Origin: a virus
Taxonomy: Duplodnaviria > Caudoviricetes
Virus record (IMG/VR): IMGVR_UViG_3300027708_000013
DNA length: 64,000 nucleotides
Strand: one strand, 5' to 3'
Shown here: positions 12,089-46,740 of the stretch, piece after piece
How the letters are laid out: every line of letters starts with the position of its first letter
Numbering within the stretch: the stretch's first letter is position 1
Made by a program: the position numbers and the translations under genes
Notes under the pieces: generated by a model
Seen by the model: only the letters and a program-made list of their open reading frames with translations
Databases searched by the model: none
What the model was told of the DNA's origin: nothing

Positions 12089-12108
12089 TTAAGATTTTCT
12101 TTCTGCAA

Positions 12109-28461: not shown

Positions 28462-28665
28462 TCAACATTGGTTCCAATGTCTTACTACACCTGCGATTAT
28501 AACAAAATTTGTTATTATGTATATCAACACAATTACTGTGCGAACACCGGCGACGCCGTCGGCTTCTTGATCAGTAGCACCAGTTTTTTCACCCAGTGCC
28601 TTGGCCCAAATTCTCCAAAGATGCCTAACCTTCGTAGATGGCACTGTTGGCTCCATGTTCAGCAC
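28462..28665 (-). CDS. Small membrane protein
   Basis: WRIWAKALGEK followed by a hydrophobic segment; start uncertain. Confidence 0.5.
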   Translation of the reverse strand: MLNMEPTVPSTKVRHLWRIWAKALGEKTGATDQEADGVAGVRTVIVLIYIITNFVIIAGVVRHWNQC

Positions 28666-29337: not shown

Positions 29338-29889
29338 TTATTGTTGCCACCAAGTTTCCCAAGGAAAACAAATCCACACCGGGTCTTCCAGTTTGTTGAT
29401 GTCCGTCCCCGAATAGTCCACCAAAAACTCACTCGCAGTGTTGTTCACCAGCACAGCAGTGCGTACATTGTGATGCCAGACGTTCAGCCAACGATCGTGA
29501 TTGGGCAAACAACTGCTTTGCCAATCCTCCCGAATCCAAGCCAGTGTGGCACCGGAATCATTGATGTCGTCTACTATTAATATACGTTTAGCATGTATGG
29601 TGTAGTCAAATGCACTGTTGGTGCCCAGGCCTTGATATCCGCCATCCACCCAACCGAATGCATCTTCGGCCATGCTGAGATTACTTGTACGCTCATCTCC
29701 GTCACGCAAACTCACATCCAGACTCCGCATTGGTACGCCCAAATAATGACTCAACATCAATGCCGGAGTCAATCCACCACGTGTGAGTCCCACAATGTAA
29801 TCGGGGCGCCATGAGCCCTCGTGCAGGTCACGTATAATTTCATGCACCCAACCACGAACATCTGCATCGGTGTAATAGATTTTTTTCAT
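29338..29889 (-). CDS. Type I phosphoribosyltransferase (Gpt/Hpt-like)
   Basis: IVGLTRGG, ILIVDDINDSGATL, WICFPWE. Confidence 0.9.
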   Translation of the reverse strand: MKKIYYTDADVRGWVHEIIRDLHEGSWRPDYIVGLTRGGLTPALMLSHYLGVPMRSLDVSLRDGDERTSNLSMAEDAFGWVDGGYQGLGTNSAFDYTIHAKRILIVDDINDSGATLAWIREDWQSSCLPNHDRWLNVWHHNVRTAVLVNNTASEFLVDYSGTDINKLEDPVWICFPWETWWQQ

Positions 29890-30635
29890 CTTGGAGCAAA
29901 GTCCTGTTGTAGTTTGATATTGTCCATGAACTCTTTTTTAGTTCCTGGGTCTGTGTTGAACGCACCTTTGAGTACTGTGGTCTGTGTCAAACTACTATGT
30001 GCCATGATGCCTCTATTGGTGCAACATCCATGTTCCGCCTGTATGTAAACTCCAATATGTTCCGAATCTGTTGCTCTCATTATTTCTTTTGCGATGTCGT
30101 TGCAGAGCTCTTCTTGTAAAGTACCACGCCTAGCACACCACTGAGCAATCCTAGTGTACTTGCTAAGACCAATAAGTTTGTTAGCGGCGATAATACCAAT
30201 GTAAGCCACACCACTAACAGGCTGATGATGATGACTACACATACTACGCAACTCACTTCTAATAACCAACATACCTTCATATCTATCCTCGCTATCATTT
30301 GGAAAAGCTGTTGCATCTGGTGCTGCATCATATCTACCCGCCATCGTTTCGTTAAAATACATTTTAGCCAATCGCTTGGCAGTGCCCTTGCTGTTTGGAT
30401 CCGTTTCTCTATCAATCAGCAAGCGATCTAAAACAGTTTCGAATGCCTCAGCGGCTTCGTTGATCAATTGTCGTTTGACGGCATCATTATTGACATATTC
30501 GCTAATATTGTCTCCAGCCCAAAATCTTTTACCATTTCGTTTCATTGTGGCACGAATCACGTCTGATACTGGGCATAGTTGATAACCACCGTCACCTGCC
30601 ATTGCGGCTAGGCCTGTTTCTTTTTTATTTGTCAA
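29886..30635 (-). CDS. folE: GTP cyclohydrolase I
   Basis: TAKRLAK, SMCSHH, GLSKYTR, RRGTLQE, HGCCTNRG. Confidence 0.96.
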   Translation of the reverse strand: MTNKKETGLAAMAGDGGYQLCPVSDVIRATMKRNGKRFWAGDNISEYVNNDAVKRQLINEAAEAFETVLDRLLIDRETDPNSKGTAKRLAKMYFNETMAGRYDAAPDATAFPNDSEDRYEGMLVIRSELRSMCSHHHQPVSGVAYIGIIAANKLIGLSKYTRIAQWCARRGTLQEELCNDIAKEIMRATDSEHIGVYIQAEHGCCTNRGIMAHSSLTQTTVLKGAFNTDPGTKKEFMDNIKLQQDFAPR

Positions 30636-31939: not shown

Positions 31940-32557
31940 TCATTTGATATTAATTAATCTACAATCGGGATAGTCAAAATGCTTGTCAAGTTGAGGAGTG
32001 AATTTCTTTTCATTGAGCAAGTTTAATCCCGCTACACACTCTTCTGGACGTAGGTAATAATGATATCCGACTTCAAATTCACATTGTGAAATCCACGGAG
32101 TATAGTTAAAAATATCCCTGCCATCATAACGCATACGACTGGCACGACGATATACTTCTGGATCATCGGTCAACAGGCAACCACCAAGGCCAATTTCCAA
32201 TGGTTTACTCATGCCAAAACTTACACATTGTATAGTGCCCGATTTGTACATATTAGATTCAAATTTACGAGCATAGTCCCAAATATTAGACCCTTTAAAC
32301 TCATATGACCCATGCCAGCGGTCATTGGTTAACATGTACGGAATGTTTAACTTCTTCATGGTCATTGGCACACTCAGATAAGTGTATGCTGGAAACATAA
32401 CCATGTCATTATTAAAATTTATACGAAATGCTATTTCTATAGCATGAGTACAGCAATCTGTGGTTACGCAATAAGGTGCACCAGTATAGTTGGCTACCGC
32501 CAACTCAAAGTCTTGAATAACATTAAATGGATTTTTATAATCACTTAATTTAATCAT
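31940..32557 (-). CDS. Short DegT-like PLP aminotransferase-fold protein
   Basis: VTTDCCTHAI, CVSFGMSKPL.IG.GG (catalytic Lys region), RMRYDGR; only 205 aa. Confidence 0.75.
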   Translation of the reverse strand: MIKLSDYKNPFNVIQDFELAVANYTGAPYCVTTDCCTHAIEIAFRINFNNDMVMFPAYTYLSVPMTMKKLNIPYMLTNDRWHGSYEFKGSNIWDYARKFESNMYKSGTIQCVSFGMSKPLEIGLGGCLLTDDPEVYRRASRMRYDGRDIFNYTPWISQCEFEVGYHYYLRPEECVAGLNLLNEKKFTPQLDKHFDYPDCRLINIK

Positions 32558-33071
32558 GTAAATGTGTTCCTGTAATCTGCATAGTGTATCTTGACTCTAC
32601 CCCAAAGTTTCCGGCAAAATGTGGTACATCGTAATTCCACATCACATAATCTCCTCTGTTCCACGACATAATAGGGTTTCCATCAACTTCCATGTAATGA
32701 CCGGACTTCCAATCCTCTAAAAATACAATACAACGCCAGATAGTTGTGGGATCTTTTATGTTAAAATTTTGTTGATAAGAATGATAGTGGTCTTGGTGTG
32801 TTGGAAACATATTTAATGTATTCATGCAAAAAAACCCAACACCGATGTCTTTCCATTGGAAACTATTGGTAAATAATTCAATAATTGTATGTACATAATC
32901 GGGCATAGGATTTGGCATACTATATAATGCACCATTTAACGTCACATTAACATAGCCCTGTTGTTGCCAGCGTTTTTCGTCCCACGTGTTTTTAATAGGC
33001 AAATATTGGTATGGAAGATCTTTAAAACTGTCATCCCATAATATATCGATATGGCCTTGCTTATGCTTCAT
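32550..33071 (-). CDS. 2OG-Fe(II) oxygenase-like protein
   Basis: PTHQD (HxD), late PHFAGN...RYTMQIT (H...R). Confidence 0.7.
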   Translation of the reverse strand: MKHKQGHIDILWDDSFKDLPYQYLPIKNTWDEKRWQQQGYVNVTLNGALYSMPNPMPDYVHTIIELFTNSFQWKDIGVGFFCMNTLNMFPTHQDHYHSYQQNFNIKDPTTIWRCIVFLEDWKSGHYMEVDGNPIMSWNRGDYVMWNYDVPHFAGNFGVESRYTMQITGTHLHD

Positions 33072-33427
33072 TCCGACAAATGATCCTGTTTAATTTCCCT
33101 CACACTGCATCCCAATTTTTCAGCAAGAGTATTTTTAATGGCGATGCGTTTGTTATTCCAATCTCGTATCTTTATGGCGCGGCGCCCGATTTCTTCCAAT
33201 CCCAACTCCTGCTCGCGACCGGTCTTTAGTAGGCTTTCTAATTCCCAGATCTCGTTATGTATCTGTACTAAATTGTTGTATAAACCAGTAACAGGTGCAA
33301 GATCAAAATGTGACGATTGATCAAGATACCACTCAAGTTCTTCCCTGTTTGCACCCGAGGTACGTGCAAATTTTACTTCGGCAATGGCCAGTCTATCAAT
33401 TAGTTCAATAACAGGAAATATGATCAT
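33068..33427 (-). CDS. Helical hypothetical protein (DUF6165-like)
   Basis: ELIDRLAIAEVK...HNEIWELE...NNKRIAIKN. Confidence 0.6.
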   Translation of the reverse strand: MIIFPVIELIDRLAIAEVKFARTSGANREELEWYLDQSSHFDLAPVTGLYNNLVQIHNEIWELESLLKTGREQELGLEEIGRRAIKIRDWNNKRIAIKNTLAEKLGCSVREIKQDHLSE

Positions 33428-33971
33428 GATATTTTTTTGCATTTGATAAAATTAAATCTTTATTAACCGACCCTATTTCTTTAACAGGAGATCCAGCATA
33501 TACAATCCATCCATTTAAATTTTTATTAACTAGGCTATTAGCACCAATTCTTGCTCCGGTGTCTACAGCTACGTTTGGTAATATAACTGAATTTGCACCT
33601 ACAATGACATGCGAGCCAATATTAATATCTCCAGTTACAAAAAAATGATAATCAGTTTGTTCGTTTACAATTACTATTGATTTATAAAAATCGTTGCTAC
33701 TGCACAATAAAGTAGAGTTTGGAGCTACAGCGGAGTGTTCTCCCATAGTAATTTTATAATTTTTGCCACCCATAAGAACACAACCCGCTTCTATTTTAGT
33801 ATTGGAATTCATAATCAACCCAGTGGAAATAAAAGTAAAATCGTCAATAATAACATTGTCGTGCAATTCTACCAGTTCCGGAAATCTAATACGAACCGTT
33901 TTGCCAATGATTACATTATTGCCTCTATATTTTAAACGAGACGTATCAAAAAATATGTTTTCATTGTTCAT
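33405..33971 (-). CDS. Hexapeptide-repeat O-acyltransferase
   Basis: Left-handed beta-helix repeats, VGANSVILP, IGANSLV, YAGSPVK. Confidence 0.9.
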   Translation of the reverse strand: MNNENIFFDTSRLKYRGNNVIIGKTVRIRFPELVELHDNVIIDDFTFISTGLIMNSNTKIEAGCVLMGGKNYKITMGEHSAVAPNSTLLCSSNDFYKSIVIVNEQTDYHFFVTGDINIGSHVIVGANSVILPNVAVDTGARIGANSLVNKNLNGWIVYAGSPVKEIGSVNKDLILSNAKKYHDHISCY

Positions 33972-34996
33972 AGATATAAGGCCTCGATATCTTTGGGATT
34001 ATTTAGAATATTTTGTATCTTAATATTACTTATATTGGGTCTACAAGGTTGGCAAAATTCAACCCGAGTTTTATTATATATGTCATAATGACGTTTGTTT
34101 AACCAACTGTCACGGAAGTCGTTTTTGTCCCAGTTAGTTAACTCAAACTGAGGATTACCCTTGCCTTCACAGCACAAATAGATTTTACCGTTGGCACAGA
34201 ACACAGGAAAGTGGAACATTTGATGACATTTCTTATAGTTGCGTGGAAGTGTTTTGTTTTGGTTGGCCCAGTATGGTAACTGGTACTGTTGGCTATACTT
34301 GTCTAAACGAGCAATAGTCTCTTTGGTAATAGGATACGCTTGATTATCAACAATTACAGGACGGAAATATAACATGCGACCCTTGAGTTCTTTAACCAGC
34401 CTAAACAAGTCGTTTATTGCTTCGTCATTGTCATTGAGCGGATTGATCAAGCACTTGAAGTCTACATTAACTCCGGCCTCAATTAATCCACGAGCGTTGT
34501 TGCACACTTTAGTAAACAAACTTTTGGCAGTTAAACTGCGTCGTATCTGTTCGTATAAATCTTCTGTGCCAGCATCTATGTCAATGCCAATCCAGGCTAT
34601 TTTGCGTAACTTTTCTACTCTGACTGTGTCTAGCAATTGATCCAAGTTACTTCCGTTAGTGGTGATGCTGGTTAAAAATCCCAAGTCTATGGTATGTTCT
34701 ATCACTTGTTCATAATTGACCAATACAGTGGGTTCGCCGCCGCCGGGATAGGTTATGGTGTGTGTTGTTCCGTAACTGCGAGGCGAGTGGGCTCTCCACC
34801 CAGCTAGTTGATCTAACAAGTCTATGTATTCTGTATATTTCTTTTGCACTGGCTGTTGTTGTCTAAACTCGGCACTGTTGCAATAGTAACAGTCTTGGTT
34901 ACACACATTGGTCAGGTCAATGTCTACTTGAGCCGGTAGTATTTTCATACTGTCGGAGTTTGTCATCCAGTGTGCTACTTCAGCGTATTGATACAT
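33968..34996 (-). CDS. Radical SAM/SPASM protein
   Basis: CNQDCYYC, GGGEP, TTNG; C-terminal C...G.IY.CC...CQPC. Confidence 0.9.
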   Translation of the reverse strand: MYQYAEVAHWMTNSDSMKILPAQVDIDLTNVCNQDCYYCNSAEFRQQQPVQKKYTEYIDLLDQLAGWRAHSPRSYGTTHTITYPGGGEPTVLVNYEQVIEHTIDLGFLTSITTNGSNLDQLLDTVRVEKLRKIAWIGIDIDAGTEDLYEQIRRSLTAKSLFTKVCNNARGLIEAGVNVDFKCLINPLNDNDEAINDLFRLVKELKGRMLYFRPVIVDNQAYPITKETIARLDKYSQQYQLPYWANQNKTLPRNYKKCHQMFHFPVFCANGKIYLCCEGKGNPQFELTNWDKNDFRDSWLNKRHYDIYNKTRVEFCQPCRPNISNIKIQNILNNPKDIEALYL

Positions 34997-35937
34997 TCTT
35001 GTATTTTAGGTTGATATTGAGTATCAAACTCACCGGCAAAAAATTTAGCTCTATTAAGTGCTCGTCTTGCCACAGTGTTTTGATTAATTTTATATAAATC
35101 TTGCTGGATTAAATCTTCAACAAGTTCATGGACTTTTGTGATTCTTGTTTGCCAGTCGAGTTCGTTGTCATAGTACTTATGATCGATTATGTCGTCAAAA
35201 ACATCTACTCCCTGAGTTCTGAGATAGTCAACTGTGCCGGGATTGCCTATTATTAGAAATAGTTGTCCCGTGGCCACAGGTTTCCAAGTTTTTTCAGTGA
35301 CAAATACCTTAGGTATAACTGTAGTTTCTGTTACCAAGTTGATATAACTATCAGCATAGGCAGAATGGGATAAATCGGTACTGGTCTTTACCATTAACGA
35401 CACCCTTGCATCTCCTAGCCTGGATTGAATTGAATTCCATTTTTCTAGCATATTGTTGCTTAACTCATAATTATCAGTTCTCATTGAGAACTGATCGGAT
35501 TGACGATGCATACTAAACAAAAGATCAGCAACATAGGGTTTTTCTTGAAGAGTCATCCAATTATAAATTCTATGCGGTCGTGGTACGCCATTTAGGCAAG
35601 ACACTTTGTATTTCTTTTCTATTTCAAGTAAGTCGGGGCAATTATATAAGTTTTTCCGGCACCAGTGATACCAGTGCGGATAAAATAACAATCGTGGTTT
35701 TATTAAATGATCCTGTGGATTGTGACTCAACAATAAAAAATTAAGACCATGGGATTCCAAGTCATTATGCAAGTTGTACAAAAAGTCACGGTCTCCGTAA
35801 TGCTCACTGCCAAAGTCGGCAACAACCAAATTGTGTGTTTTTAATAGTGTTATTTTTTCTTGATCCAAGCACCAAGTAGTCTTGTTAAAAATCGTATCTG
35901 GCTGATTAAAATAAAAAACTCCTGGTTGATTAAACAT
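34975..35937 (-). CDS. Glycosyltransferase-like protein (VTET...TEK..KP family)
   Basis: SCLNG.PRPHR, INLVTET, FVTEKTWKP; likely start 35937. Confidence 0.6.
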   Translation of the reverse strand: MFNQPGVFYFNQPDTIFNKTTWCLDQEKITLLKTHNLVVADFGSEHYGDRDFLYNLHNDLESHGLNFLLLSHNPQDHLIKPRLLFYPHWYHWCRKNLYNCPDLLEIEKKYKVSCLNGVPRPHRIYNWMTLQEKPYVADLLFSMHRQSDQFSMRTDNYELSNNMLEKWNSIQSRLGDARVSLMVKTSTDLSHSAYADSYINLVTETTVIPKVFVTEKTWKPVATGQLFLIIGNPGTVDYLRTQGVDVFDDIIDHKYYDNELDWQTRITKVHELVEDLIQQDLYKINQNTVARRALNRAKFFAGEFDTQYQPKIQECINTLK

Positions 35938-36904
35938 TCCTGGTGTACCACCGATGGGCACTATCAATGATGGTGGCAATGTCACTGTGTTCAGGCACCC
36001 ACGCCATCTTTTCTTTTATTAAACCAGCATCGGCCACAAGTTCCGCAGGATCTCCAAATCTAGCTGGACCATAATTAACCGAAGTTATCCCGTATTTTTC
36101 TAATACATAATCCACAATGGCTTGATTGCTGGTGCCTGTGTTGGTGCCTAGGTTAAACACTTCAGCACCAGGTTGTGGATAGTCATTGAGTTTATAATCA
36201 GCGGCCATGACATGTGCTCTGGCTATATCCCATACATGTATGTAGTCTCTTACACAGGTACCGTCCTCTGTGGGGTAATCACCACCGTTGATAGTAACAG
36301 GTTGTTGAGCTATGCTGGCTTCTAAAGCACGAGCTATCAAGTGTGTGGCACCAGGTTCTTGACCTAGATCTGCACTGAAAGGTTCTGCACCAGCAGCATT
36401 AAAGTACCTAAAGCACACACTGGGTACAGCATAGGCGCCCCAGTAGTCGGCCAACATGCGTTCAGTCATGGCCTTGGTGGCACCGTAGGGACTGATGGGT
36501 TGGATAGTGTCGTATTCTCTGCAAGGCAATCTATCGGGTTCTCCGTACACACTGGCACTGCTACTGAACATTACTACAGGTTTAGTATCAAAGTCTTTCA
36601 CCGCATTCAGCATGCGTATGGTCTTGGCAATGTTGTTGTCGTAGTATTCACCAGGATTGTCCATGCTGGGCCCAACCAAGCTGGTTCCGGCACAGTGTAC
36701 AACAACATCTGGTGCCAGGCTGTGCATGGTGGCTAGACTGCTATCACTGGCGAAATCTGCAATCAAATAGCCATCTATACCTTGTAAGGTATGATCTCTT
36801 TGCTCTCGATCAATGATAACCACATGATCACCATTCTGTTTGAATGCTCGTGCCACGTGGCTACCAATGTAACCACAGCCTCCAGTTACTATGATTTTTC
36901 TCAT
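35930..36904 (-). CDS. galE: UDP-glucose 4-epimerase
   Basis: VTGGCGYIGSH, SSSASVYG, YGATK, FRYFNAAG, VRDYIHV. Confidence 0.93.
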   Translation of the reverse strand: MRKIIVTGGCGYIGSHVARAFKQNGDHVVIIDREQRDHTLQGIDGYLIADFASDSSLATMHSLAPDVVVHCAGTSLVGPSMDNPGEYYDNNIAKTIRMLNAVKDFDTKPVVMFSSSASVYGEPDRLPCREYDTIQPISPYGATKAMTERMLADYWGAYAVPSVCFRYFNAAGAEPFSADLGQEPGATHLIARALEASIAQQPVTINGGDYPTEDGTCVRDYIHVWDIARAHVMAADYKLNDYPQPGAEVFNLGTNTGTSNQAIVDYVLEKYGITSVNYGPARFGDPAELVADAGLIKEKMAWVPEHSDIATIIDSAHRWYTRNV

Positions 36905-37131
36905 TTGGGTTTTGTTTGTGTTAGTTGCCAATTTTTTTCTAGCAAGATATTGTTTTTTTTGCGTAGGTCAATGACATCCTGTATTAAACTGTCTGTCAAA
37001 TTACGATGGTACGCTAAATCCCGTTGTAGCTTTTCATCAGTGATGGGAGGTTTTTGTTGGCTGGCACAATAGGCATAGCCGGCTAAAAAGCCTACCATCC
37101 CAACTACACCAGTTAATAAGTCAATGGTCAT
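36901..37131 (-). CDS. Small membrane-anchored coiled-coil protein
   Basis: N-terminal TM helix. Confidence 0.6.
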   Translation of the reverse strand: MTIDLLTGVVGMVGFLAGYAYCASQQKPPITDEKLQRDLAYHRNLTDSLIQDVIDLRKKNNILLEKNWQLTQTKPK

Positions 37132-37144
37132 ATATAAAATCCTT

Positions 37145-37348
37145 TTATGTTTGGGTCAATGGGGTCGGGAATACAATAGTTTTTAACATTACATATTGAT
37201 CAAATAATTTAGTTAATTCATTTTCCTCACCCAGGAACCATTGACTGGCAGCTCGCATACTCAAGGCATCAAGTTCAGTTTCGGTCAACATGGGGTACTG
37301 CTCTCGAGCCAAAGTTATCCAAATTTCTCGTTTAGTATTTAGACTCAT
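37145..37348 (-). CDS. Hypothetical protein
   Basis: 67 aa ORF overlapping the GT stop. Confidence 0.55.
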   Translation of the reverse strand: MSLNTKREIWITLAREQYPMLTETELDALSMRAASQWFLGEENELTKLFDQYVMLKTIVFPTPLTQT

Positions 37349-38510
37349 GTGTGTGTTTTCTGTAATCTGTACTCATGCGTAGCCACTGTTCTCCAGATCC
37401 TTGTAATATATCAACAATACGATCAACAGTACCATCGGTCCAGGCACTGATACGGCCCATGTGTTGGCTTGGTTTGTTCAACAAAGATTGTAACTTGCTC
37501 ATAGCATCTTCCAAACTCCAAGGAACATACAAGCGGCTTGCGTCGTTGGCAAAAGTCTCAGGGAAACTTCTATATGCTGGATATAACACATTGGCACCCA
37601 AGGTATCTGCTTCACTCACAGTGTTAGACACCCAATCTTGTAAAGCACAGTTAAACAATACCCTAGTGTCGTTTAATAACGCATAGTATTCATTCTTCTC
37701 AAGGTTATCGTACACTTTGATCATGCCCTTTGCTTCAAACGCACGGATACGATCAATGGCACCTTGATCATTGCCACGCAGTTGAGAGCCACTGAAGATA
37801 GCAAACTCTACTCGAGGCAAATGAAAGTTATCGTGCCATGCTTGAATTAAATCTAAATAAAAGTGCGGCTGTTTTTCTTGATCTGTTCTGGCCGCAAAAG
37901 CCACTCGCATGGCTCTTTGATCAAACGGTGTTAATTCTCCAGGCACTCTTGCACGGACTTCATCTCGACCAAACGCCAAGCCGGAGATGTTGTAGATCGG
38001 GGCTTCCCAGCCAGCTATTTTCATGTGCATTGCCATTTCTTCGTTTGAAGCTAATACAATATCCGCAAAACTATCCACCATTTTCTCATAAAGTGCCATC
38101 CACTTTGACATACCCCAGACATGAACGAAATCGTCCGGGTCAATGCTTTGTGCAAGACAACGAACAGCGATCCTAGGACGCATGTTAGGCTCAACTTGAT
38201 TAATAATGTAAGGTAGGCTCTCGATGCCTGGTTGAAACATGTCTTCAAAGTATATAACATCTTCATTTGTGATTTCTCCTGCTTTCATTTTTGCCACAAG
38301 CATCATTAATTGACTCATACCAAAGTAAGTACGTCCGTGTGCATCCAACACCTGTCCGGTTACAATGGCTTGATCATTGCTTAATGTTTCACCAGCGACA
38401 ATTTCATAATCAATACCACGACGCCGAAATACACGTTCGTTCCAGTCTTGTAACTGTAGTGTGTATCTTGCTTTATAGGGCTCTAGGCCCATGTACCAAA
38501 GTTTTCTCAT
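37332..38510 (-). CDS. GT-B glycosyltransferase, T4 DNA alpha-glucosyltransferase-like
   Basis: N-terminus MRKLWYMGLE...YT..LQDW recalls Agt (MRICIFMARGLEG...QRDW). AART..EKQP; QDWVSNTVSEA. Confidence 0.7.
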   Translation of the reverse strand: MRKLWYMGLEPYKARYTLQLQDWNERVFRRRGIDYEIVAGETLSNDQAIVTGQVLDAHGRTYFGMSQLMMLVAKMKAGEITNEDVIYFEDMFQPGIESLPYIINQVEPNMRPRIAVRCLAQSIDPDDFVHVWGMSKWMALYEKMVDSFADIVLASNEEMAMHMKIAGWEAPIYNISGLAFGRDEVRARVPGELTPFDQRAMRVAFAARTDQEKQPHFYLDLIQAWHDNFHLPRVEFAIFSGSQLRGNDQGAIDRIRAFEAKGMIKVYDNLEKNEYYALLNDTRVLFNCALQDWVSNTVSEADTLGANVLYPAYRSFPETFANDASRLYVPWSLEDAMSKLQSLLNKPSQHMGRISAWTDGTVDRIVDILQGSGEQWLRMSTDYRKHTHESKY

Positions 38511-38845
38511 CGTGCTTTCCTAAATTCTTCAACATCTTTCACTGCTTGTTGTAGTATTGTAGCATAGTTGACAGCCTGTTGTCTATTCATTATGAGACTA
38601 GATTCGTATCGGATGTAACCTCGAGTCAGCAGTGTCCAGATGTGATACCATCGAGTTCTACTCCACCAGTTGGTTTTACCTGTGGTATAGGTAGTAACAG
38701 TGACACCTGTTTCATCGGATTCGACCCAAACATCATGATCATGATCACTTTGGCCACACTCACATATGACCTTGTACATTTTGGCGTCGCCCCAGGTGTT
38801 TTTGATCAAGACTCCGGTGGCAGGAGTTTCGGGTGTTAGCGCCAT
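38507..38845 (-). CDS. Hypothetical protein
   Basis: ORF in operon; CEC...H motif. Confidence 0.65.
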   Translation of the reverse strand: MALTPETPATGVLIKNTWGDAKMYKVICECGQSDHDHDVWVESDETGVTVTTYTTGKTNWWSRTRWYHIWTLLTRGYIRYESSLIMNRQQAVNYATILQQAVKDVEEFRKAR

Positions 38846-39105
38846 GTTCTTGGACGCCAATTTGCATCACGTGGTTTGAAATCACGTTTTTCTTTGGGAT
38901 ACGGGCTCCAATTATCTTTAGGATGTTTGCCGGCTTTCACACGTTGCATTTCGCCCCAGGGAGTTTTTTCATTGTAGAGATGATTTTCATCATACACATA
39001 ACCTTGTTTTTTACAGAACGTGAGATACTCTTCAAGATCATCAAACAGGTCGCGGACTTCGGGTCTTAAGCGAAGATATTTGTTTAACCAAGTGGGCTGG
39101 CCCAT
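38836..39105 (-). CDS. Hypothetical protein
   Basis: 89 aa ORF; SD AAGGAG. Confidence 0.7.
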   Translation of the reverse strand: MGQPTWLNKYLRLRPEVRDLFDDLEEYLTFCKKQGYVYDENHLYNEKTPWGEMQRVKAGKHPKDNWSPYPKEKRDFKPRDANWRPRTWR

Positions 39106-39116
39106 ATACTACTCCT

Positions 39117-39560
39117 TTAAATTACGATTGAAAGACTTGGACGGACTACGTTGTAATTGATATGGCATCCGTTTTCACCGTCCTCGGATACCTCAATTGA
39201 TACATAACGACCAGGATATCGTTCTGCTACTTGAAGATAGAGATCGTCGGCGAGCATTTCCACACTTTTAAAGTCCAACTGTAACACATCCTTGCTGTAA
39301 AGACTTTCCAGCCAACGTTTGAATTGTATAAATTCAATGTCTCTATCATTATGCTCTACACCAATCCAGACTTGAAAATGGAATATGTGTCTGTGACTAT
39401 TGGCTAGGAAACTCACATCATACTCACCGGGAGTACACAAGTTGGGATCTGTAGCTGCAGCTGGATAGCGATGTATGCCTTCACGTTGGAACGTGACCCA
39501 AATCTGTCTTTGGGCCTGTGTCATGATTCTATCCACTGTTTCTCTCAATTCTTGATTCAT
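39117..39560 (-). CDS. dpdL: QueD-like T-fold protein, DpdL-like (candidate CDG decarboxylase)
   Basis: LANSHRHIF matches LxxxHRHxF rather than QueD CxxxHGH. Also RDIEFI, SVEMLA and VSEDGENG. Confidence 0.72.
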   Translation of the reverse strand: MNQELRETVDRIMTQAQRQIWVTFQREGIHRYPAAATDPNLCTPGEYDVSFLANSHRHIFHFQVWIGVEHNDRDIEFIQFKRWLESLYSKDVLQLDFKSVEMLADDLYLQVAERYPGRYVSIEVSEDGENGCHINYNVVRPSLSIVI

Positions 39561-40078
39561 TTTATTACCTCATCTTTGGTATATTGACTCCAGTCCGTAA
39601 AACACTTACGGTCCTGTAACGCATGTAAACTATGACACCAGACTCCAGGATTGGAGGCCGCAAAGTCTCTATCGTCTAGTTTAATTGTAGCATTATATCC
39701 CAGCTGTTGTATATAGGGCAATTTAACCGAAAGCATGGGAACAAAGTTGTGAAACTCTGTCAATCCACTTTCCAATAACCCTTCGGCACAGGCAACATCT
39801 ATATCCAAGGTGCACAACATACCACGGCGTAAAAATGGAGTAATCATAAGTTCCCATGCTTGCCAGGCCTCGGCATCATTCACTGCCAACAGTGGGAAAC
39901 TGTGATTGGCACCAAAATAAATATGATCAATTGGGTATGGTTGTGCATCAGCGGCAGTGATGATGGCCGATTCGCTGTGTACACCAATGACAAATAAAGT
40001 TTTTTTATTGTATGCTGGTGTGTGTTCTACTTCAGTTCCAACGAAAAAGTTCACATCTTCATGTCCAGGTCTATCCAT
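39557..40078 (-). CDS. Conserved-looking hypothetical protein between dpdA and dpdL
   Basis: SD GGAGA, ATG 40078 at the dpdA stop; GTEVEHTP, HIYFGANHSF, GVWCH. Confidence 0.75.
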   Translation of the reverse strand: MDRPGHEDVNFFVGTEVEHTPAYNKKTLFVIGVHSESAIITAADAQPYPIDHIYFGANHSFPLLAVNDAEAWQAWELMITPFLRRGMLCTLDIDVACAEGLLESGLTEFHNFVPMLSVKLPYIQQLGYNATIKLDDRDFAASNPGVWCHSLHALQDRKCFTDWSQYTKDEVIK

Positions 40079-40079
40079 G

Positions 40080-41675
40080 TTATTCTCCAAATAGGTCTGG
40101 GTTGAGTAAGGGCCGTGGTTGTTCAGTTTTAACAGGTTTATCGCGAGCCAAATTGCCTTCGATGTCCACCAGTTTACCGGCCATGGTGTATGCATTTACA
40201 ACTTTATCGCCTTTGAATCCTCTGGTTCCGATGATGTCGGTCCAATACTTGCTGTATTTTTTAATAATTTCTAAACTGTCTGCTTGCGTTGGAGCAACAA
40301 ATATGCTTTCCACAATGTCTTCAAAGTAGGCATGGTCTCCGGTGCGTCCTTTGGTTCCGCTGTACTGCATCATTGCCGGATGTTCACCACTATCGAATCG
40401 TCTATTGGCTTCTTGCACTGCTGTCAAATGCATCCAAACATTGTGACCCATCAGCAACATATAACTGAAGCTGTCCCAACTAGTTCGTGCTGGCTCTTTG
40501 CCATTCTTATTAAGATCACCAGGTGCATACACACAAATATCTTTCATTTTCAGCATGTTGCTGATGGGGCTTTCATCCCAATTTTTAATTGCTGTGCCAG
40601 GATCTTTGACAGGCAAGTCAGCCAATACTCCTGTACTCCATTTACGAGTGTCTTGGGCATATTTTTTATCATCCAACACAGGAGCCATTCTATAACTCCA
40701 TTTACCGTCCTGTGGGAATACGTTTTCAAAGTACACCTGTCCGTTGGCAGTGGCCAAGAAAGGACTGGCACAATCAAAACTAATGGTAAAAGCAGGATTG
40801 ATGTGTTTTCTCACCGCACGTTGTATAACTGTAAGTAGCACTGCCCACTCTAATTTGCTAGTGCCCAAGAAGTGCATCCAATCATGTACGCCTGGTTGTA
40901 GCAAATTATCATATCGTAATGCAACAAGTCTTTTTAATACTAGTTCTACATCACACATGTTCTGACCACCCATACTCCAGCCATTAAAATGTGTGTCGGG
41001 ATACTTGACAGGATCGCAATAATCTTTCATTGTTTGATACCATTGTTCAGCATCATCGTGATTGGCACCTTGCAACACGTTCAACACTCGCATACCACCG
41101 TTGTTGATGCCTCGACGATGCTTCATGTAAAAGTCATTGTTGAATCTAGTGGCATCCACAGCTTCTTGTAGAGTGCTGATACCACATGCCAGACTGGCTT
41201 TCTTATCGTGTATCACCCAAGTTGGAATATCCAAGGTCATGCCATAATCGGCAATGCCATCCAGCCATTTAAGCACAGCTTCACGCCGAGCTTGAGCCCG
41301 GGGGCATCCACTGTTAGCCCGCCAGTCACCTTCCCATAGGCCTTTGGCAATTTGGAAACCACCTGAATCGCCCAGCATCACGGTGTTGGGATCTCTATTA
41401 CGAACCATGTCCTCACTCCAGTCCTGCTTGTTAAGATCAAGATTGGCATGACCACCCGAGTAAAGACTCCATCGATAAGGGAACAGGGCTTTCTGTGCAT
41501 CAAGCCAGTTCATCTGTTCCATATCTGTCAGGCCCTGTGGAAAACGTGCAGGATCTACATAAGGTGTTGCTGAGGTATCACGTTGTTTGCCTATGAATGT
41601 GGCATAAAACCCCGAGATGGCTGGAAGAAATACTGCATAATCTTTTTGTTTTGCTGTTAAGTTATCTTGTTCCAT
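40080..41675 (-). CDS. dpdA: tRNA-guanine-transglycosylase-like DNA transglycosylase (DpdA/DpdA2-like)
   Basis: LGDSGGFQ, MTLDIP, LNVLQG, GWSMGG, HFLG, SFDCAS, HN; que genes nearby. Confidence 0.85.
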   Translation of the reverse strand: MEQDNLTAKQKDYAVFLPAISGFYATFIGKQRDTSATPYVDPARFPQGLTDMEQMNWLDAQKALFPYRWSLYSGGHANLDLNKQDWSEDMVRNRDPNTVMLGDSGGFQIAKGLWEGDWRANSGCPRAQARREAVLKWLDGIADYGMTLDIPTWVIHDKKASLACGISTLQEAVDATRFNNDFYMKHRRGINNGGMRVLNVLQGANHDDAEQWYQTMKDYCDPVKYPDTHFNGWSMGGQNMCDVELVLKRLVALRYDNLLQPGVHDWMHFLGTSKLEWAVLLTVIQRAVRKHINPAFTISFDCASPFLATANGQVYFENVFPQDGKWSYRMAPVLDDKKYAQDTRKWSTGVLADLPVKDPGTAIKNWDESPISNMLKMKDICVYAPGDLNKNGKEPARTSWDSFSYMLLMGHNVWMHLTAVQEANRRFDSGEHPAMMQYSGTKGRTGDHAYFEDIVESIFVAPTQADSLEIIKKYSKYWTDIIGTRGFKGDKVVNAYTMAGKLVDIEGNLARDKPVKTEQPRPLLNPDLFGE

Positions 41676-42294
41676 AGAACTTTACTGAGTTAATTAATTC
41701 GTAGTCTGCGGCAAAGTAATCTTTGACTGCTTTGAGATATCGAGGATTTTGTATTTCTCTCTCAAATATATTTTTAAACTTTTTACGTATGGGATCTGCT
41801 TCACTGACATGTTGTGGTTCATACCTATGATACCTATTAGGCATACCCTGTTCATCCAAGAACACACTGAAGTCTTGTCTATAGTATTCGTCACATAGAA
41901 AAAACACACATTGTTCACTGTCAAGTCCATGTACAAAGTTTACTTGACGCTCGGTGTGGTCGTCAAATGCAATTCTATCAAAAATTAAATCCATGGCTTC
42001 TAGATCATGCATGATAAAATCTGGATGATACAGTGCAAGGTATTCGGCAATGCCCGAAATCCAACGCTCAACAGGATCACGCAGTACCACCATGGCTGTT
42101 TTGATCTGAAGAATTCTATCTGTGTGATAGTTGTAGAACTCCCAACCAAAATCTTTCAAGTTGGGTTTGGTCCACGAGCTGGCATTTTTAGGAATGTTGA
42201 CATACATGAGATCCGTGTTGTTGCTGGACATGCATTGACCATACACATGGCCTTTTGAACTCCACTGAGTTAAAAATCCTGCATCAATCTTCAT
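41662..42294 (-). CDS. Sulfotransferase (Sulfotransfer_2-like)
   Basis: YVNIPKNASSW (5'-PSB), VLRDPVERWISG (3'-PB), DYELI. Confidence 0.85.
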   Translation of the reverse strand: MKIDAGFLTQWSSKGHVYGQCMSSNNTDLMYVNIPKNASSWTKPNLKDFGWEFYNYHTDRILQIKTAMVVLRDPVERWISGIAEYLALYHPDFIMHDLEAMDLIFDRIAFDDHTERQVNFVHGLDSEQCVFFLCDEYYRQDFSVFLDEQGMPNRYHRYEPQHVSEADPIRKKFKNIFEREIQNPRYLKAVKDYFAADYELINSVKFYGTR

Positions 42295-43022
42295 TTGGTC
42301 TGTGCTGGGATAATGTAAGAGTATTCTGCAAGTCCAGAGTCTACGGTGATCATAGCAGCACCTTCATCGGAGATTTTAAATGTTTTGTCTCCACTTAGAT
42401 TTAAAATACTGATAACAGCCGCAACTGGCCAATTCCATGCTTTAGAGATAGTACCCGAAACTCCTGCTTGAAACACAAAGTTACCTGCATGACTGCTGGC
42501 ATCACCAAAGAAGAATTTCAAGTCACCGTTTTCGGTTTTGGCAATGAATGTGGTTTCTTCACTGTTGGCACTGGCTTGAAATTTCAAACGTTGAATATTT
42601 GCATTGGTGGGAACAAAGTCCACACCCCATTTGACACCTTTGAATTTCACTGCTTTGAGTTTGTCATTGATGATTTCTGCAGCCATAAAACGATAGTCGT
42701 TTTTAAAGTCGCCGGCGGCATTTTGAAAATGTACTCCTGCGGGAATAGATTCACCGTTACGGTCTTGACGATTGATACTGAGTTGTGCATTTTCTCTGTA
42801 TTCTGGAATACCCAAAATAGTATTGAGTTTGCCCAAGTTAGGCATACCAAACACACCAATGAAATCTGGATGTGCTGATTTGAATCGTGCTTCTACGATG
42901 ACTGATCTATCTTCGGCCACTGCATTGATCACTGTGTCGTCTTCAGTGCCGGTAATTTTAACTAGGTCAATAATGCCCAGTCCGTGTGTGTGCGATACGA
43001 TATCTTTTAAAAAATCTTGCAT
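42291..43022 (-). CDS. Sliding clamp, T4 gp45-like
   Basis: 243 aa, next to the polymerase; clamp-like beta/alpha pattern ending AEYSYIIPA. Confidence 0.7.
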   Translation of the reverse strand: MQDFLKDIVSHTHGLGIIDLVKITGTEDDTVINAVAEDRSVIVEARFKSAHPDFIGVFGMPNLGKLNTILGIPEYRENAQLSINRQDRNGESIPAGVHFQNAAGDFKNDYRFMAAEIINDKLKAVKFKGVKWGVDFVPTNANIQRLKFQASANSEETTFIAKTENGDLKFFFGDASSHAGNFVFQAGVSGTISKAWNWPVAAVISILNLSGDKTFKISDEGAAMITVDSGLAEYSYIIPAQTK

Positions 43023-43042
43023 ATAGTTCTCCTGTTGTATGT

Positions 43043-43072
43043 ATTATACGTGATTGTATTTAGACCTGTCAA
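43043..43072 (-). promoter_or_regulatory. Sigma70 promoter TTGACA-18-TATAAT with nested TAAATA
   Basis: -35 at 43067-43072, -10 at 43043-43048, TAAATA at 43057-43062. Confidence 0.7.
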
Positions 43073-44004
43073 CGTTCTTGGTATTTTATTTCGCCCAATA
43101 CTTGGTGTGCTTTGACTGTGTGTAAGGTTCCTGGCCGTTGAATTTCCAACCAGGTGATGTTGTATTGATTGAAATCACTGTGTATGCAGTAGCCTAGACT
43201 TTCGCACAAAGGTATCAATAGGCTCTTGGGCATATATGTCTGTGCAAACGATTCGGCTAGCCCGGCACCATGTGTGGTGTCACCATCATTGTAACTGAAC
43301 ATAAACACACCACCCGGTCTCAGTAACTCAAATATCTGTCTCAGGTACGATTTCATAGTGTCCAAGCTGACATAATTAAAATATCCCCAGCTGAAAACAA
43401 AGCTCATTTGTTGCAGTGGCAATGCAGATAAATCATGATTGCTTATGCGATATTTTCTCAATCTTGTTTGGTACTCTGGAGTAAACTGACTGTTGGTTGA
43501 GTCAAGGAAATCCTGATTGGGATCTGCTAGGTATAAGGGATCCGCTGCCACCATGTACTGTGTCCATTCACCGTCTCTACAGCCAATTTCCAAGGCCGGA
43601 TATCTCCAGCTGGTATGCAACATTATACGTTGTTTTATGTCTTGTTCGGTATCGGGCAATATTGCGATTCGTCTATTGGTTCTAATAGATTCTATGGTTC
43701 CCGGCTGTTGCTCTATGCCGTAATTGTTGGCAAACAGTCTATGAGTTATTTCGTTGATTTGATTGTTGATCTTTTCAATCCTGGGCCCTAACTCATCTGC
43801 CTGTTGCACTAAATTTTCAATTGAGTGTATAAGTTTAATGATGTTGGTTTGAATGTATTGTTTGTGTTCGTCACTGATGTCGCTGACCTGTGACTCAATG
43901 TTTTCAAAATTACGTTTCAACTGTTGCAATTCTTCAATGGCAGAGTCAACTGCCATTGCTTCAAGCAACGATTGTCGTAGTGCAACAAGATTGTATAAAT
44001 TCAT
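43069..44004 (-). CDS. Class I SAM-dependent methyltransferase with N-terminal coiled coil
   Basis: ALEIGCRDG, LYLADP, FSWGYFNY, LLRPGGVFMFSY. Confidence 0.85.
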   Translation of the reverse strand: MNLYNLVALRQSLLEAMAVDSAIEELQQLKRNFENIESQVSDISDEHKQYIQTNIIKLIHSIENLVQQADELGPRIEKINNQINEITHRLFANNYGIEQQPGTIESIRTNRRIAILPDTEQDIKQRIMLHTSWRYPALEIGCRDGEWTQYMVAADPLYLADPNQDFLDSTNSQFTPEYQTRLRKYRISNHDLSALPLQQMSFVFSWGYFNYVSLDTMKSYLRQIFELLRPGGVFMFSYNDGDTTHGAGLAESFAQTYMPKSLLIPLCESLGYCIHSDFNQYNITWLEIQRPGTLHTVKAHQVLGEIKYQER

Positions 44005-44006
44005 CT

Positions 44007-46676
44007 TTATTCAAATGTAAACAAACTGTCAAATGTAGTTTTAATGTCAGTGGCTTCAGCAATGCCCCACTCCAGCACACCCAACAAATTTTCCACCTTT
44101 TGATCCACAATGGTCACTTCCATGAGGTCGTTGTCAAATGGCAAGTTTTTAAACCAGTCGGGAATGTGACTTTCATCTGTGGGATAGCCCACCGACGTAT
44201 AGCCCAAAGGATTGTCCTTTAATTTACACACAATGGTTTTCATACCATCCACAATACTCATGGAATAGTTGTCACTCATCATGCGTTTTAAGTTGTTCCA
44301 ATTCATTGCAGCTCTAACATGTCCTGGCATGTTGGCCTTGCCCAAGCGTTTTTCTTCGGCTGTGTATTTGGTTAGATTGTTTACACGTTTGGGTGTACCT
44401 TTTTCCCAGGCCGGACGTTCAGCAAATTCAATCTTGAATTCTCTAACTCTATCCACCACACGTTGTCTAACATCTCCGGTGCCGGTGAGTACTTCCAATA
44501 AAATTTCACTGAGAAACTCCTGCACAATCTTGGGAGTATCACTGCGTTTCAAATCCAAGCCCATGGCCTTGACCTTACCCGGCCGACCCATGACATCCTG
44601 TCGCTTGCCTTCTTTATCATAGATCAACACAGCATAGCGTTTCTTTTTAATGAACAATCCTTTACTTGCTACCAGTTCTCTGCCACCTAGAATAATAGCA
44701 CCCATGTCTCTGGGGCAGTGACAAGCACGTTCCATGAACGCTGGGAAACTTTCATTTACACTTTGGGCAATGGTGTCGTACAGTTGTACGCAGATTTCCC
44801 GCGACCATTCCATTCTACCCGCCGCAACTTCCTCTTTGACTGCGGGCCACGCTGAGAAGTATACCGAGTCGGTGTCGCCGTATATAATCGACGAGCCCAC
44901 ATGGTCGTATTCGCCTGTAATGGCTTCATTAACATGTGCATCCATGTGCCTTGCAATGATGCGGCCAGTGAGTGTCGTGCTCTGACCAATGCGGTGGTCG
45001 AAGAACCTGCAACCCGGGTTGAGGATCGCACCGTAGAGGCTGTTGAGGTTGATTTTTTTGACCAACTGTCGTTTGTCCCAGAACGCAACATCTTCCGGAG
45101 TTTCTGCGGCTTCCTTTTTGGCTTGTAAGTCTTTTCGTTCGGCATACCATCTCTCCAGTAATCCAGGAATAATTCCTTTGGTGTCGTATCTAAATATTGT
45201 ACCATTGGCACTGAGTGTCCATGGTTGTCTGCTGTCAAAGATCATTCGCCATACTTCAGCGGCCGAGTGTACAGTACTTTTGCCCGAGTCCTCCCAGTCA
45301 ATGGTGATTTCTGTGCCGGGTTCGGCATTCATCACAGCAGTGTATTCCACACTACCAAACATGTTTTCCCAAGCATCAGCAAAACTACTGCCTGAGGCTA
45401 TTTTATCCCCAATGTATCTATCTGTCATGATGGGACGCAGTTGAGCCACAACAGTTTCTGGACCCATGTTGAGTGCTCGAATGGCTGAGGGATACAAACT
45501 GTTGATGTCTATGGCACCAATGTATTCGTGTACACCGCGTTTGGGATAGGCCACATAAGCACCTGCGGCTTGACTGTTGACTTCTTCGTCACGTCCTCTA
45601 CGGTTGGGGGCAATCATGCCACGACTGTGTGCTTCGTTGATGATGGCCTGTTCAGTAACAGCCACAGCACCCATTGTGGTGGGCAACAACACTGTGTTGT
45701 CATGTGCCAGTTCATTGGCTAGATCCAAGTAACGTAATTTCTTATCCAGTTTGGCCAACAAGGCCACGTCCTGACGATTGTAGTCTATGAACTTTTCAAA
45801 CTCTCTGTTGTACAGTTGATCCAAGGTGCCTTCGTAGGCAGTTTTATTGCCCACTTCTTCGTATTCGCCAATGGCATCTAAACTGTAACTGTGACGTTCT
45901 TCATAGGTGTATTTTCTATACAACTGCATATAGTCCATATGCACACGACCTATCAAATCAAATGTCAATTGTTCGGCACCAAAGCGTTCAAATGTTCGCT
46001 GTTTGGGAAACTGTCCCCACAAGCACAGGCGTCGTGTGTCGTCTTTGCTCAACACACGATTGATACGCATGGTGGTGTAGGGAATATCATATCCCTCACT
46101 ATTCCACCCGCTCAAGATGTCGGCATCGTCAATGATGTCCAGGAATGTGTTCAACATGTCTGCTTCACGTTCAAACAAGAAACAGTTGTCAAATTTACGG
46201 CAAATTTCTTCTGCCGATTGCCATGAGTAACTCCGGGGTGGCACCACTAGAGTAACCATCCGGTCCATCCAGTCCATGTACACTGATATTGAAGTGATGG
46301 CGTTGAATGGATCATCCGGCTTGGAATAGCCACGCTCGGGATCAAAGTCCACTTCAATATCAAAAAAGGCTGTGTGTAATCTGGGTGAAGCCACGCCGAG
46401 ATAGTTTTCCTCTAGGCAACGAAATATGGGATTGATATCGCTTTCCCACAGTTGCTTGTTGGAGTTTATGCGTAGTTCTTTTTGGAATTCTTTATTGTTA
46501 CGTGTGGTAAAACGGCTCACAGGTGTACCGTAGATGGTTCGATGTTTGCCCTTGGGGTCATCATAATACAGGGTGTAGTTGGCTGGATATTCTCGATAAA
46601 CTCGCTCACCTGCAACTCGTTCTACCACATGAATACGATCTTTATTGCGATCAAACAATGCGTCAATATAGCTGAT
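44007..46676 (-). CDS. Family B DNA polymerase (T4 gp43-like)
   Basis: Exo FFDIEVDF, GWNSEGYD, YNRQD; pol DINSLYPS, KINLNSLYG, YGDTDS, KKRYA. Probable start is ATC 46676 after AAGGAG. Confidence 0.97.
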   Translation of the reverse strand: MSYIDALFDRNKDRIHVVERVAGERVYREYPANYTLYYDDPKGKHRTIYGTPVSRFTTRNNKEFQKELRINSNKQLWESDINPIFRCLEENYLGVASPRLHTAFFDIEVDFDPERGYSKPDDPFNAITSISVYMDWMDRMVTLVVPPRSYSWQSAEEICRKFDNCFLFEREADMLNTFLDIIDDADILSGWNSEGYDIPYTTMRINRVLSKDDTRRLCLWGQFPKQRTFERFGAEQLTFDLIGRVHMDYMQLYRKYTYEERHSYSLDAIGEYEEVGNKTAYEGTLDQLYNREFEKFIDYNRQDVALLAKLDKKLRYLDLANELAHDNTVLLPTTMGAVAVTEQAIINEAHSRGMIAPNRRGRDEEVNSQAAGAYVAYPKRGVHEYIGAIDINSLYPSAIRALNMGPETVVAQLRPIMTDRYIGDKIASGSSFADAWENMFGSVEYTAVMNAEPGTEITIDWEDSGKSTVHSAAEVWRMIFDSRQPWTLSANGTIFRYDTKGIIPGLLERWYAERKDLQAKKEAAETPEDVAFWDKRQLVKKINLNSLYGAILNPGCRFFDHRIGQSTTLTGRIIARHMDAHVNEAITGEYDHVGSSIIYGDTDSVYFSAWPAVKEEVAAGRMEWSREICVQLYDTIAQSVNESFPAFMERACHCPRDMGAIILGGRELVASKGLFIKKKRYAVLIYDKEGKRQDVMGRPGKVKAMGLDLKRSDTPKIVQEFLSEILLEVLTGTGDVRQRVVDRVREFKIEFAERPAWEKGTPKRVNNLTKYTAEEKRLGKANMPGHVRAAMNWNNLKRMMSDNYSMSIVDGMKTIVCKLKDNPLGYTSVGYPTDESHIPDWFKNLPFDNDLMEVTIVDQKVENLLGVLEWGIAEATDIKTTFDSLFTFE

Positions 46677-46683
46677 GATAATT

Positions 46684-46740
46684 CTCCTTGAGTGTGACTT
46701 TGAGCTCACACAGCTCTACATGTTCGTAAGTGAACGACTC
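46684..46740 (-). promoter_or_regulatory. Structured 5' leader of the polymerase gene, candidate translational operator
   Basis: Hairpins GTTC/GAAC and GAGCT/AGCTC, alternative GTGTGA/TCACAC and outer GAGT/ACTC, directly before the SD. Confidence 0.55.

Follow-up and report, generated by a model that had tools for sequence, protein, structure and literature searches.

The virus record IMGVR_UViG_3300027708_000013 of IMG/VR (Duplodnaviria; Caudoviricetes) is a 64,000-nucleotide stretch of freshwater metagenome DNA, hereafter the window, which shares synteny with PA5oct, a jumbo phage of Pseudomonas. It contains what is best read as the central part of a DNA-modification cassette linked to replication, in an uncultured freshwater phage related to PA5oct. 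The cassette encodes a DpdA-like DNA-guanine transglycosylase, the QueD-like protein DpdL, a GT4-like glycosyltransferase of the GT-B fold and the UDP-glucose 4-epimerase GalE, and is a variant of the DpdA3/DpdL system of phage phiST, whose product is plain deazaguanine (dDG) in the phage DNA (PMC10516641), with a glycosyltransferase and sugar genes built in. Gene linkage across unrelated phages strongly backs a deazaguanine derivative as the putative acceptor of the glycosyltransferase, and we consider that the evidence tips modestly towards a sugar-bearing 7-deazaguanine in the DNA of the phage.

The genes of the cassette follow each other in the order DpdA-like transglycosylase, a conserved protein termed X173, DpdL, two small open reading frames (ORFs), glycosyltransferase, two further small ORFs and GalE, with neighbours either no more than 13 nt apart or overlapping, and several of the overlaps are of the 4-nt ATGA type. 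The run extends past GalE through a 336-aa protein without assigned function, a radical S-adenosylmethionine (SAM) enzyme, a hexapeptide acyltransferase, two more unassigned proteins and a short DegT-type aminotransferase; after one opposite-strand gene come FolE, a phosphoribosyltransferase and QueD, and QueE is found a few genes later. The arrangement of the cassette genes recurs in 80 of 80 close relatives as well as in distant ones and is thus not due to chance. All ORFs named by the original prediction, which was made from the sequence of the window, lie on the minus strand at the positions it gave, and its calls of dpdA-like, unknown, dpdL, GT-B and galE genes in tight coupling are borne out by positions, overlaps, motifs and structure models. 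Coordinates below are those of the window and refer to its minus strand unless marked otherwise.

Linkage of the glycosyltransferase to deazaguanine genes

A total of 240 loci around relatives of the glycosyltransferase were collected in three scans seeded with different family members to sample distant branches, and were searched with Hidden Markov Models (HMMs) built iteratively from the window proteins; linkage was counted in 100 loci, which were non-redundant and had 5 kb or more of sequence on both sides. DpdL is encoded within 10 kb of the glycosyltransferase in 96 of these loci, always on the same strand, and lies within 3 kb in 92 and within 600 bp in 53 of them. The other families of the pathway are also frequent: FolE is found in 87 loci, QueE in 85, the DpdA-like protein in 84 and QueD in 70. 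The linkage is kept in 25 of the 29 loci whose glycosyltransferases are less than 40% identical to the window protein. Because gene order differs between groups, with linkage in both orders, the association is not mere inherited synteny. Unbiased clustering of all neighbours identified only DpdL, DpdA, FolE, QueD, QueE and the DNA polymerase as common to all identity bins, and two distant glycosyltransferase members that were looked up independently adjoin genes for PTPS-family, radical SAM and GTP cyclohydrolase proteins.

The same association is found in cultured phages. Among the 50,697 records of the isolate collection, DpdL is present in 28 and the glycosyltransferase in 14, all of which are among the 28, and in none of the 14 does the distance between the two genes exceed about 2 kb. 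These 14 records represent five unrelated groups: the PA5oct-like phages, ACP17, Xanthomonas phages BUDD and X1, Sinorhizobium phage Phosso and the T4-like cyanophage BUCT-ZZ01. The order is DpdA, glycosyltransferase and DpdL in PA5oct, its relatives and ACP17; glycosyltransferase, tRNA-guanine transglycosylase (TGT) and DpdL in BUDD and X1; DpdL followed by the glycosyltransferase in Phosso; and a second glycosyltransferase, a DSGG-bearing protein, DpdL and the glycosyltransferase in BUCT-ZZ01. The second GT4-like protein of BUCT-ZZ01 (447 aa, positions 11632-12975 on the minus strand of the fetched locus) has the motif FIGRWEDGKNP, and its gene is the immediate upstream neighbour of that for the DSGG-bearing DpdA-like protein; this phage may attach more than one sugar. 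A distant relative (locus L084) encodes a 408-aa UDG-family protein (positions 9381-10607, plus strand) a few genes downstream of its run of glycosyltransferase, PTPS-family, QueE and FolE genes.

The original prediction had left the acceptor open between a deazaguanine derivative and an oxidised base. The former gains strongly from the gene linkage across unrelated phages. For the latter no evidence was found: clustering of all neighbour genes in the fetched loci revealed no oxygenase or hydroxylase conserved with the glycosyltransferase, and the idea of a conserved oxygenase that would supply a hydroxyl group for the sugar was rejected, as no such family extends across the lineages of the glycosyltransferase. 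In 16 relatives, the gene that immediately precedes the glycosyltransferase encodes a nucleotidyltransferase-cupin fusion. The original prediction noted no dCMP hydroxymethylase in the window, and the relatives lack a hydroxymethylase route as well: the PF00303 members of the relatives are canonical ThyA proteins with the motifs PCH and PFNI, and the window has ThyX, so that no hydroxymethyl-pyrimidine acceptor is expected.

Glycosyltransferase, transglycosylase and DpdL

The glycosyltransferase (37332..38510, 392 aa) is a GT4-like GT-B enzyme and not specifically an Agt-like one. Its model is a confident GT-B fold with a predicted local distance difference test score (pLDDT) of 95.7, which by Foldseek matches MshA, BshA and LmbT with an E value of 1e-12. 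Its best fold matches are the GT4 retaining enzymes MshA, BshA, LmbT, SenB, sucrose-phosphate synthase and PimA, and VIA-align places the GT4 enzymes at Z scores from 26.9 to 23 over residues 1-372 of the glycosyltransferase. The original prediction had likened its N-terminus to T4 DNA alpha-glucosyltransferase (Agt), a likeness that is not upheld: Agt (PDB 1y6f) reaches a Z score of 20.9 at rank 28, compared with 26.9 for the best GT4 enzymes, and is absent at E values up to 1 from both single-sequence and profile searches of PDB sequences. What Agt and the window protein have in common is the GT-B fold and, as known for the former and proposed for the latter, a phage enzyme's role in decorating a modified DNA base; they differ in that Agt requires hydroxymethylcytosine, to which no route exists here. 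In the viral structure library BFVD, the ACP17 homologue ranks highest among the named matches, and models of viral DNA alpha-glycosyltransferases appear from rank 30 on. The glycosyltransferase of phage HY126, whose structure is solved, is not close either, with a Z score of 19.0; it belongs to the arabinosyl-hydroxycytosine system.

Residues of the donor site are conserved within the family. PF00534 (Glycos_transf_1) is matched by 54 of 92 diverse relatives but not by the window protein itself, and R208, K213 and E300, which align to the donor-binding motifs GRLDxxKN and LEA of WlaC and GlgM, are invariant or kept in at least 90% of these 92 members. Of the EX7E motif, the first Glu is present and the second is absent. 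The N-terminal, acceptor-side domain is strongly conserved, which suggests that one common acceptor may be shared across the family. The family is viral and very large, with at least 7997 members (of 8000 candidates scored, clustered at 90%) and at least 775 clusters at 50% identity. Short exact contigs on the glycosyltransferase, DpdL and DpdA genes are found in two lake RNA libraries, which may contain DNA and are not counted as proof of expression.

The DpdA-like protein (40080..41675, 531 aa) is a long and divergent form of the DNA-guanine transglycosylase. It carries the motif GDSGGFQ at residues 102-108, and among 22 diverse family members D103, S104, G106, Q108, D149 and D301 are invariant; D103, D149 and D301 would be the equivalents of D102, D156 and D280 of TGT. 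An AlphaFold2 model built with the 22 relatives has a pLDDT of 83, and its top 50 Foldseek matches in PDB are all TGTs, with E values from 3e-8 and a probability of 1.0. The protein itself matches nothing in Pfam, NCBIfam, PHROGs or PDB by single-sequence search, PF01702 is matched by only one of the 22 relatives, and the family profile finds no TGT among PDB sequences, so that TGT is recovered by fold search only. An HMM of the family, derived from the fetched loci, picks up gp123 of ACP17 (E 4.6e-18), which adjoins the DpdL of that phage, as well as the annotated TGT of BUDD, and barely reaches the 259-aa DpdA3 of phiST (E 0.1). As it lacks a match to any curated model and yet is joined by this HMM to the DpdA of ACP17, the 531-aa protein is assigned to a long, divergent DpdA-like subfamily, which would act on DNA by exchanging guanine for 7-deazaguanine.

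X173 (39557..40078, 173 aa counted from an internal ATG) starts 1 nt after the stop of the DpdA-like gene and is present in 52 of the 100 glycosyltransferase loci, with gp122 of ACP17 as a member. It matches nothing in Pfam, NCBIfam, PDB or PHROGs, including profile searches against PDB and Pfam, its language-model look-alikes are below the useful range, and hhalign gives no match between X173 and the DpdA-like family.

DpdL (39117..39560, 147 aa), whose start overlaps the stop of X173, is a QueD-like T-fold protein. The published signature of DpdL is LxxxHRHxF in place of CxxxHGH (PMC10516641), and the window protein fits it with LANSHRHIF. A motif of the HRHxF type is found in 201 of 211 family members from the fetched loci, and H56, H58, E76, E101 and E126 are invariant. 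The protein matches phrog_17812, is 50% identical to gp166 of PA5oct, and is 33% identical to CGPG_00067 of phiST over 78% of its length (tblastn, E 5e-8). Residue 100 of the window protein is Val (SVEM), while at least 90% of the family have Cys (SCEM); one relative of 58% identity also has Val. DpdL is proposed to be a 7-carboxy-7-deazaguanine (CDG) decarboxylase, a reaction that its authors could not reconstitute: they used the dpdL of ACP17 in the paper that named the protein, and the formation of dDG in E. coli with DpdA and DpdL alone failed (PMC10516641).

Base synthesis, sugar supply and neighbouring genes

The genes for making the base are encoded downstream of the cassette core. FolE, a GTP cyclohydrolase I (29886..30635), matches PF01227 with an E value of 1.5e-39. 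It is overlapped by 4 nt by the gene of a purine-type phosphoribosyltransferase (29338..29889; PF00156), which is 31% identical to the annotated xanthine-guanine phosphoribosyltransferase of BUCT-ZZ01; this gene is present in that phage and in 33 of the 100 glycosyltransferase loci. QueD (28625..29251; PF01242), the 6-carboxytetrahydropterin (CPH4) synthase, has the same CxxxHGY variant motif as in phiST and is 53% identical to the QueD of BUCT-ZZ01. The QueE-like radical SAM enzyme (25645..26496), the CDG synthase, matches Radical_SAM weakly and is 48% identical to QueE of BUCT-ZZ01 and 30% identical to gp162 of PA5oct. DpdL is thus accompanied by FolE, QueD, QueE and a DpdA-like gene. QueC was not found among the scanned ORFs of the window or in a complete 352-kb relative, PA5oct or BUCT-ZZ01, which means that the base pathway ends at the carboxy or the decarboxylated form.

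GalE (35930..36931) matches TIGR01179 with 290.9 bits, above the cut-off of 262.3, and also PF01370; its true start is most likely the tenth codon at 36904, which would give another ATGA overlap. It is encoded in 61 of the 100 loci, always downstream of the glycosyltransferase, and its distribution is uneven: 60 of the 71 loci with glycosyltransferases at least 40% identical to the window protein have it, compared with 1 of the 29 more distant ones. The donor originally predicted, UDP-galactose or UDP-N-acetylgalactosamine, is consequently plausible for the window lineage only, because beside distant relatives other sugar-nucleotide genes are found in the place of GalE.

The sugar genes beyond GalE vary. 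The block that may tailor the sugar (31940..35985; assigned with Pfam and NCBIfam) comprises the 336-aa protein, the radical SAM enzyme (342 aa), the hexapeptide acyltransferase (188 aa), two proteins without assignment and the DegT-type aminotransferase (205 aa), of which the radical SAM gene and the unassigned ones occur in only 1-3 of the 80 close relatives. The DegT gene (31940-32557, minus strand) is about half the normal length, and as the same short form of about 203 aa is kept in 30 relatives, it is not a local truncation. Beside the glycosyltransferase, other relatives encode a nucleotidyltransferase fused to a cupin of the mannose-6-phosphate-isomerase type, a small cytidylyltransferase-like protein or a second GT4 enzyme. 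The cytosines of T-even phages bear varied sugars, and by analogy a fixed transferase with changing sugar genes would be expected of an exposed mark under diversifying selection.

The replication genes lie directly upstream of the cassette (42291..46709). They encode a sliding-clamp-like protein (42291..43022), which is 37% identical to gp170 of PA5oct and has a Phosso homologue with a sliding-clamp annotation, and a family-B DNA polymerase (44007..46709; Pfam), which is 48% identical to that of PA5oct; a class-I SAM methyltransferase encoded between them (43069..44004; Pfam) is found in only 24 of the 80 close relatives. Within the run, the 89-aa ORF at 38836..39105, whose function is unassigned, is conserved in 76 of the 80 close relatives, where it always lies between DpdL and the glycosyltransferase, and is absent from distant ones. 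The adjacent 117-aa ORF (38507..38860), which starts with TTG and has an ATG at codon 6, contains a CxC...HDHD stretch and overlaps the start of the glycosyltransferase with its stop by 4 nt; it is lineage-specific and found in 5 of the 80 close relatives, as is the 67-aa ORF at 37145..37348. The 76-aa ORF at 36901..37131, which has a hydrophobic N-terminus, is found only in the closest relative, L004. Neither these small ORFs nor the 336-aa protein have a match in single-sequence searches of Pfam, NCBIfam, PHROGs and PDB.

Other genes of the window include a truncated-looking AMP-binding gene of the acyl-CoA-ligase type (30681-31826, plus strand, 381 aa), which interrupts the minus-strand run between the short DegT and folE genes, and a second NAD-dependent sugar epimerase/dehydratase (7600-8556, minus strand), which is located beside ThyX (8553-9230, minus strand) and a 389-aa protein without assignment in the region 6528-9230, far from the main cassette. 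A MoxR-type AAA ATPase (13897-14997, minus strand) is paired with a DUF2201 metallopeptidase/VWA-like protein (12530-13774, minus strand). A single-protein scan of bacterial genomes found only two contigs of metagenome-assembled genomes, L242 and L243 (labelled Haliscomenobacter sp. and Chitinophagales, and binned as Bacteroidota), with glycosyltransferases 65-66% identical to that of the window; they are probably phage contigs and are at most a hint of a Bacteroidota host.

Proposed modification, alternatives and significance

From the functions of these genes and their linkage, we infer an acceptor, a donor and an order of steps. FolE, QueD and QueE would convert GTP to CDG, from which DpdL, following the published proposal, would strip the carboxyl group to give 7-deazaguanine. 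The DpdA-like enzyme would insert this base in place of guanine in phage DNA after replication, and the glycosyltransferase would put on the deazaguanine a sugar derived from a nucleotide sugar, acting either on the free base before its insertion or on the base in DNA. In the window lineage the donor would probably be UDP-galactose or UDP-glucose, interconverted by the phage GalE, and the downstream aminotransferase, acyltransferase and radical SAM enzyme might tailor the sugar further. The resulting deazapurine, with its sugar, would protect the DNA against nucleases of the host. We hold more tentatively, and at somewhat less than an even chance, a wider version of this proposal, in which the DNA of the window lineage and of PA5oct, ACP17, BUDD/X1, Phosso and BUCT-ZZ01 carries glycosylated 7-deazaguanine, the sugar varies between these relatives, and the GT4-like glycosyltransferases responsible, acting on the base in DNA or on the free base, form a hitherto unrecognised family that abounds in freshwater viromes.

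Among known systems, the cassette is close to that of phiST. Both have FolE, a CxxxHGY QueD, QueE, a DpdL with LxxxHRHxF and a transglycosylase of the TGT family, both lack QueC and both adjoin the polymerase (PMC10516641). The phiST system differs in having neither glycosyltransferase nor GalE and in its DpdA3 of 259 aa, compared with 531 aa in the window, whereas the window cassette has a glycosyltransferase and sugar-nucleotide genes built in. ACP17 and PA5oct share with the window the trio of DpdA-like protein, glycosyltransferase-like protein and DpdL beside QueE and the polymerase; their glycosyltransferases are only 23-24% identical to that of the window, and no GalE adjoins them. The glycosyltransferase gene is not treated as a part of the pathway for ACP17 (PMC10516641) or for PA5oct (PMC12191111). 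According to a 2025 preprint, the DNA of PA5oct resists restriction enzymes in a pattern that points to modified G; the preprint names QueE and a PTPS in PA5oct but not the chemistry of the modification (PMC12191111).

Several points weigh against a sugar on deazaguanine in DNA. 7-Deazaguanine lacks a hydroxyl group, and the glycosyltransferase has no hydroxylase conserved alongside it, so that the transfer would have to target a nitrogen, a carbon or the carboxyl group of the precursor, and we know of no GT4 enzyme that performs such a transfer on DNA. The 392-aa glycosyltransferase itself has no match in Pfam, NCBIfam, PHROGs or PDB by single-sequence search, its binding of DNA is putative, and the support for its role is all genomic. 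In addition, the activity of DpdL was never reconstituted, and phiST has DpdL without the glycosyltransferase and plain deazaguanine in its DNA (PMC10516641), which means that the sugar step is not required for DpdL to function. A chemical precedent for attachment to nitrogen is provided by huimycin and the dapiramicins, in which a sugar is carried by the 2-amino group of a 7-deazapurine; in huimycin, the attachment is ascribed to the glycosyltransferase HuiG, whose gene adjoins folE (PMC7439116). Further possibilities are an attack by the electron-rich C7 and an ester formed on the carboxy precursor.

The huimycin cluster of Kutzneria albida resembles the cassette in having a GT-B gene beside folE, queD and queE and a sugar on the 2-amino group of a base derived from the 7-deazaguanine pathway. 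It differs in being a bacterial secondary-metabolite system that acts on a free, preQ0-derived base, with QueC present, no DpdA and no DNA involved. The tRNA of vertebrates is a nucleic acid in which a 7-deazaguanine base bears a sugar: queuosine is mannosylated by a GT-B enzyme there, and mannosyl- and galactosyl-queuosine occur. In this case the nucleic acid is RNA and the sugar is on a hydroxyl of the cyclopentenediol, which the window phage cannot make. A cluster named tRNA-queuosine alpha-mannosyltransferase is among the language-model look-alikes of the window glycosyltransferase and is taken as a lead only.

HuiG also bears on an alternative, in which the glycosyltransferase acts on a soluble molecule, such as free 7-deazaguanine, its carboxy precursor or a pterin intermediate. 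The product, for example a soluble or sequestered base pool or a huimycin-like glycoside acting on the host, would then stay out of DNA, and the DNA of the phage would contain plain deazaguanine. Like HuiG, which glycosylates a free deazapurine base, the fold neighbours MshA, BshA, LmbT, SenB and the tetrahydrobiopterin glucosyltransferase 5zer (Z 23.6) have small-molecule acceptors; DpdL, with which the glycosyltransferase is most tightly associated, is presumed to work on the free base, and the purine phosphoribosyltransferase in a third of the loci points to free-base chemistry as well. We nevertheless regard this alternative as unlikely, since the cassette always occurs with a DNA transglycosylase among replication genes, the diversification of the sugar genes is more readily explained by selection on an exposed mark than by an internal intermediate, and no genes for export or self-resistance were seen. 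Slightly less likely still is that the glycosyltransferase has a target outside the base pathway, for instance a virion protein, the envelope of the host or a different DNA base, and neighbours the pathway through a shared early gene module. The acceptor ranges of GT4 enzymes are very broad, phages glycosylate capsids and host surface sugars, and the order of the module in the window lineage is conserved by descent; against these considerations, the linkage survives rearrangement and is seen in five unrelated cultured groups and at glycosyltransferase identities below 40%, and every isolate bearing the glycosyltransferase has DpdL, although DpdL is so rare among the isolate records. A T-even-type acceptor has no hydroxymethylase route, given the canonical ThyA of the relatives.

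It is also conceivable that the glycosyltransferase-like protein no longer transfers sugar and instead assists DpdA or DpdL structurally or by binding DNA. This would agree with its falling below the Pfam thresholds, and a missing partner is a possible reason why reconstitution with DpdA and DpdL in E. coli failed in the hands of others (PMC10516641). The retention of the GT4 donor-binding Arg, Lys and Glu in nearly all of the diverse members and the clustering of sugar-nucleotide genes with the glycosyltransferase make such a loss of activity very improbable.

A sugar on deazaguanine in phage DNA therefore remains our preferred reading, and its consequences would be considerable. To the best of our knowledge, all sugar-decorated DNA bases are pyrimidines, namely glucosyl- or arabinosyl-hydroxymethyl- or hydroxy-cytosine and base J, and in the literature searched no sugar-bearing deazaguanine in DNA is described. 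If the proposal is true, the base would be the first sugar-bearing purine analogue in any DNA and would represent a new chemical class of DNA hypermodification, and the glycosyltransferases would provide a new family of enzymes with which DNA could be tagged at its guanine positions. The need for a glycosyltransferase could also explain the failed reconstitution for ACP17, and the sugar-bearing base would be a candidate for the identity of the modified G of the jumbo phage PA5oct, itself a therapeutic candidate. As the gene pair is present in at least five cultured phage groups, the prediction is directly testable; and as the glycosyltransferase family is large, its function, whatever it is, must be common in nature.

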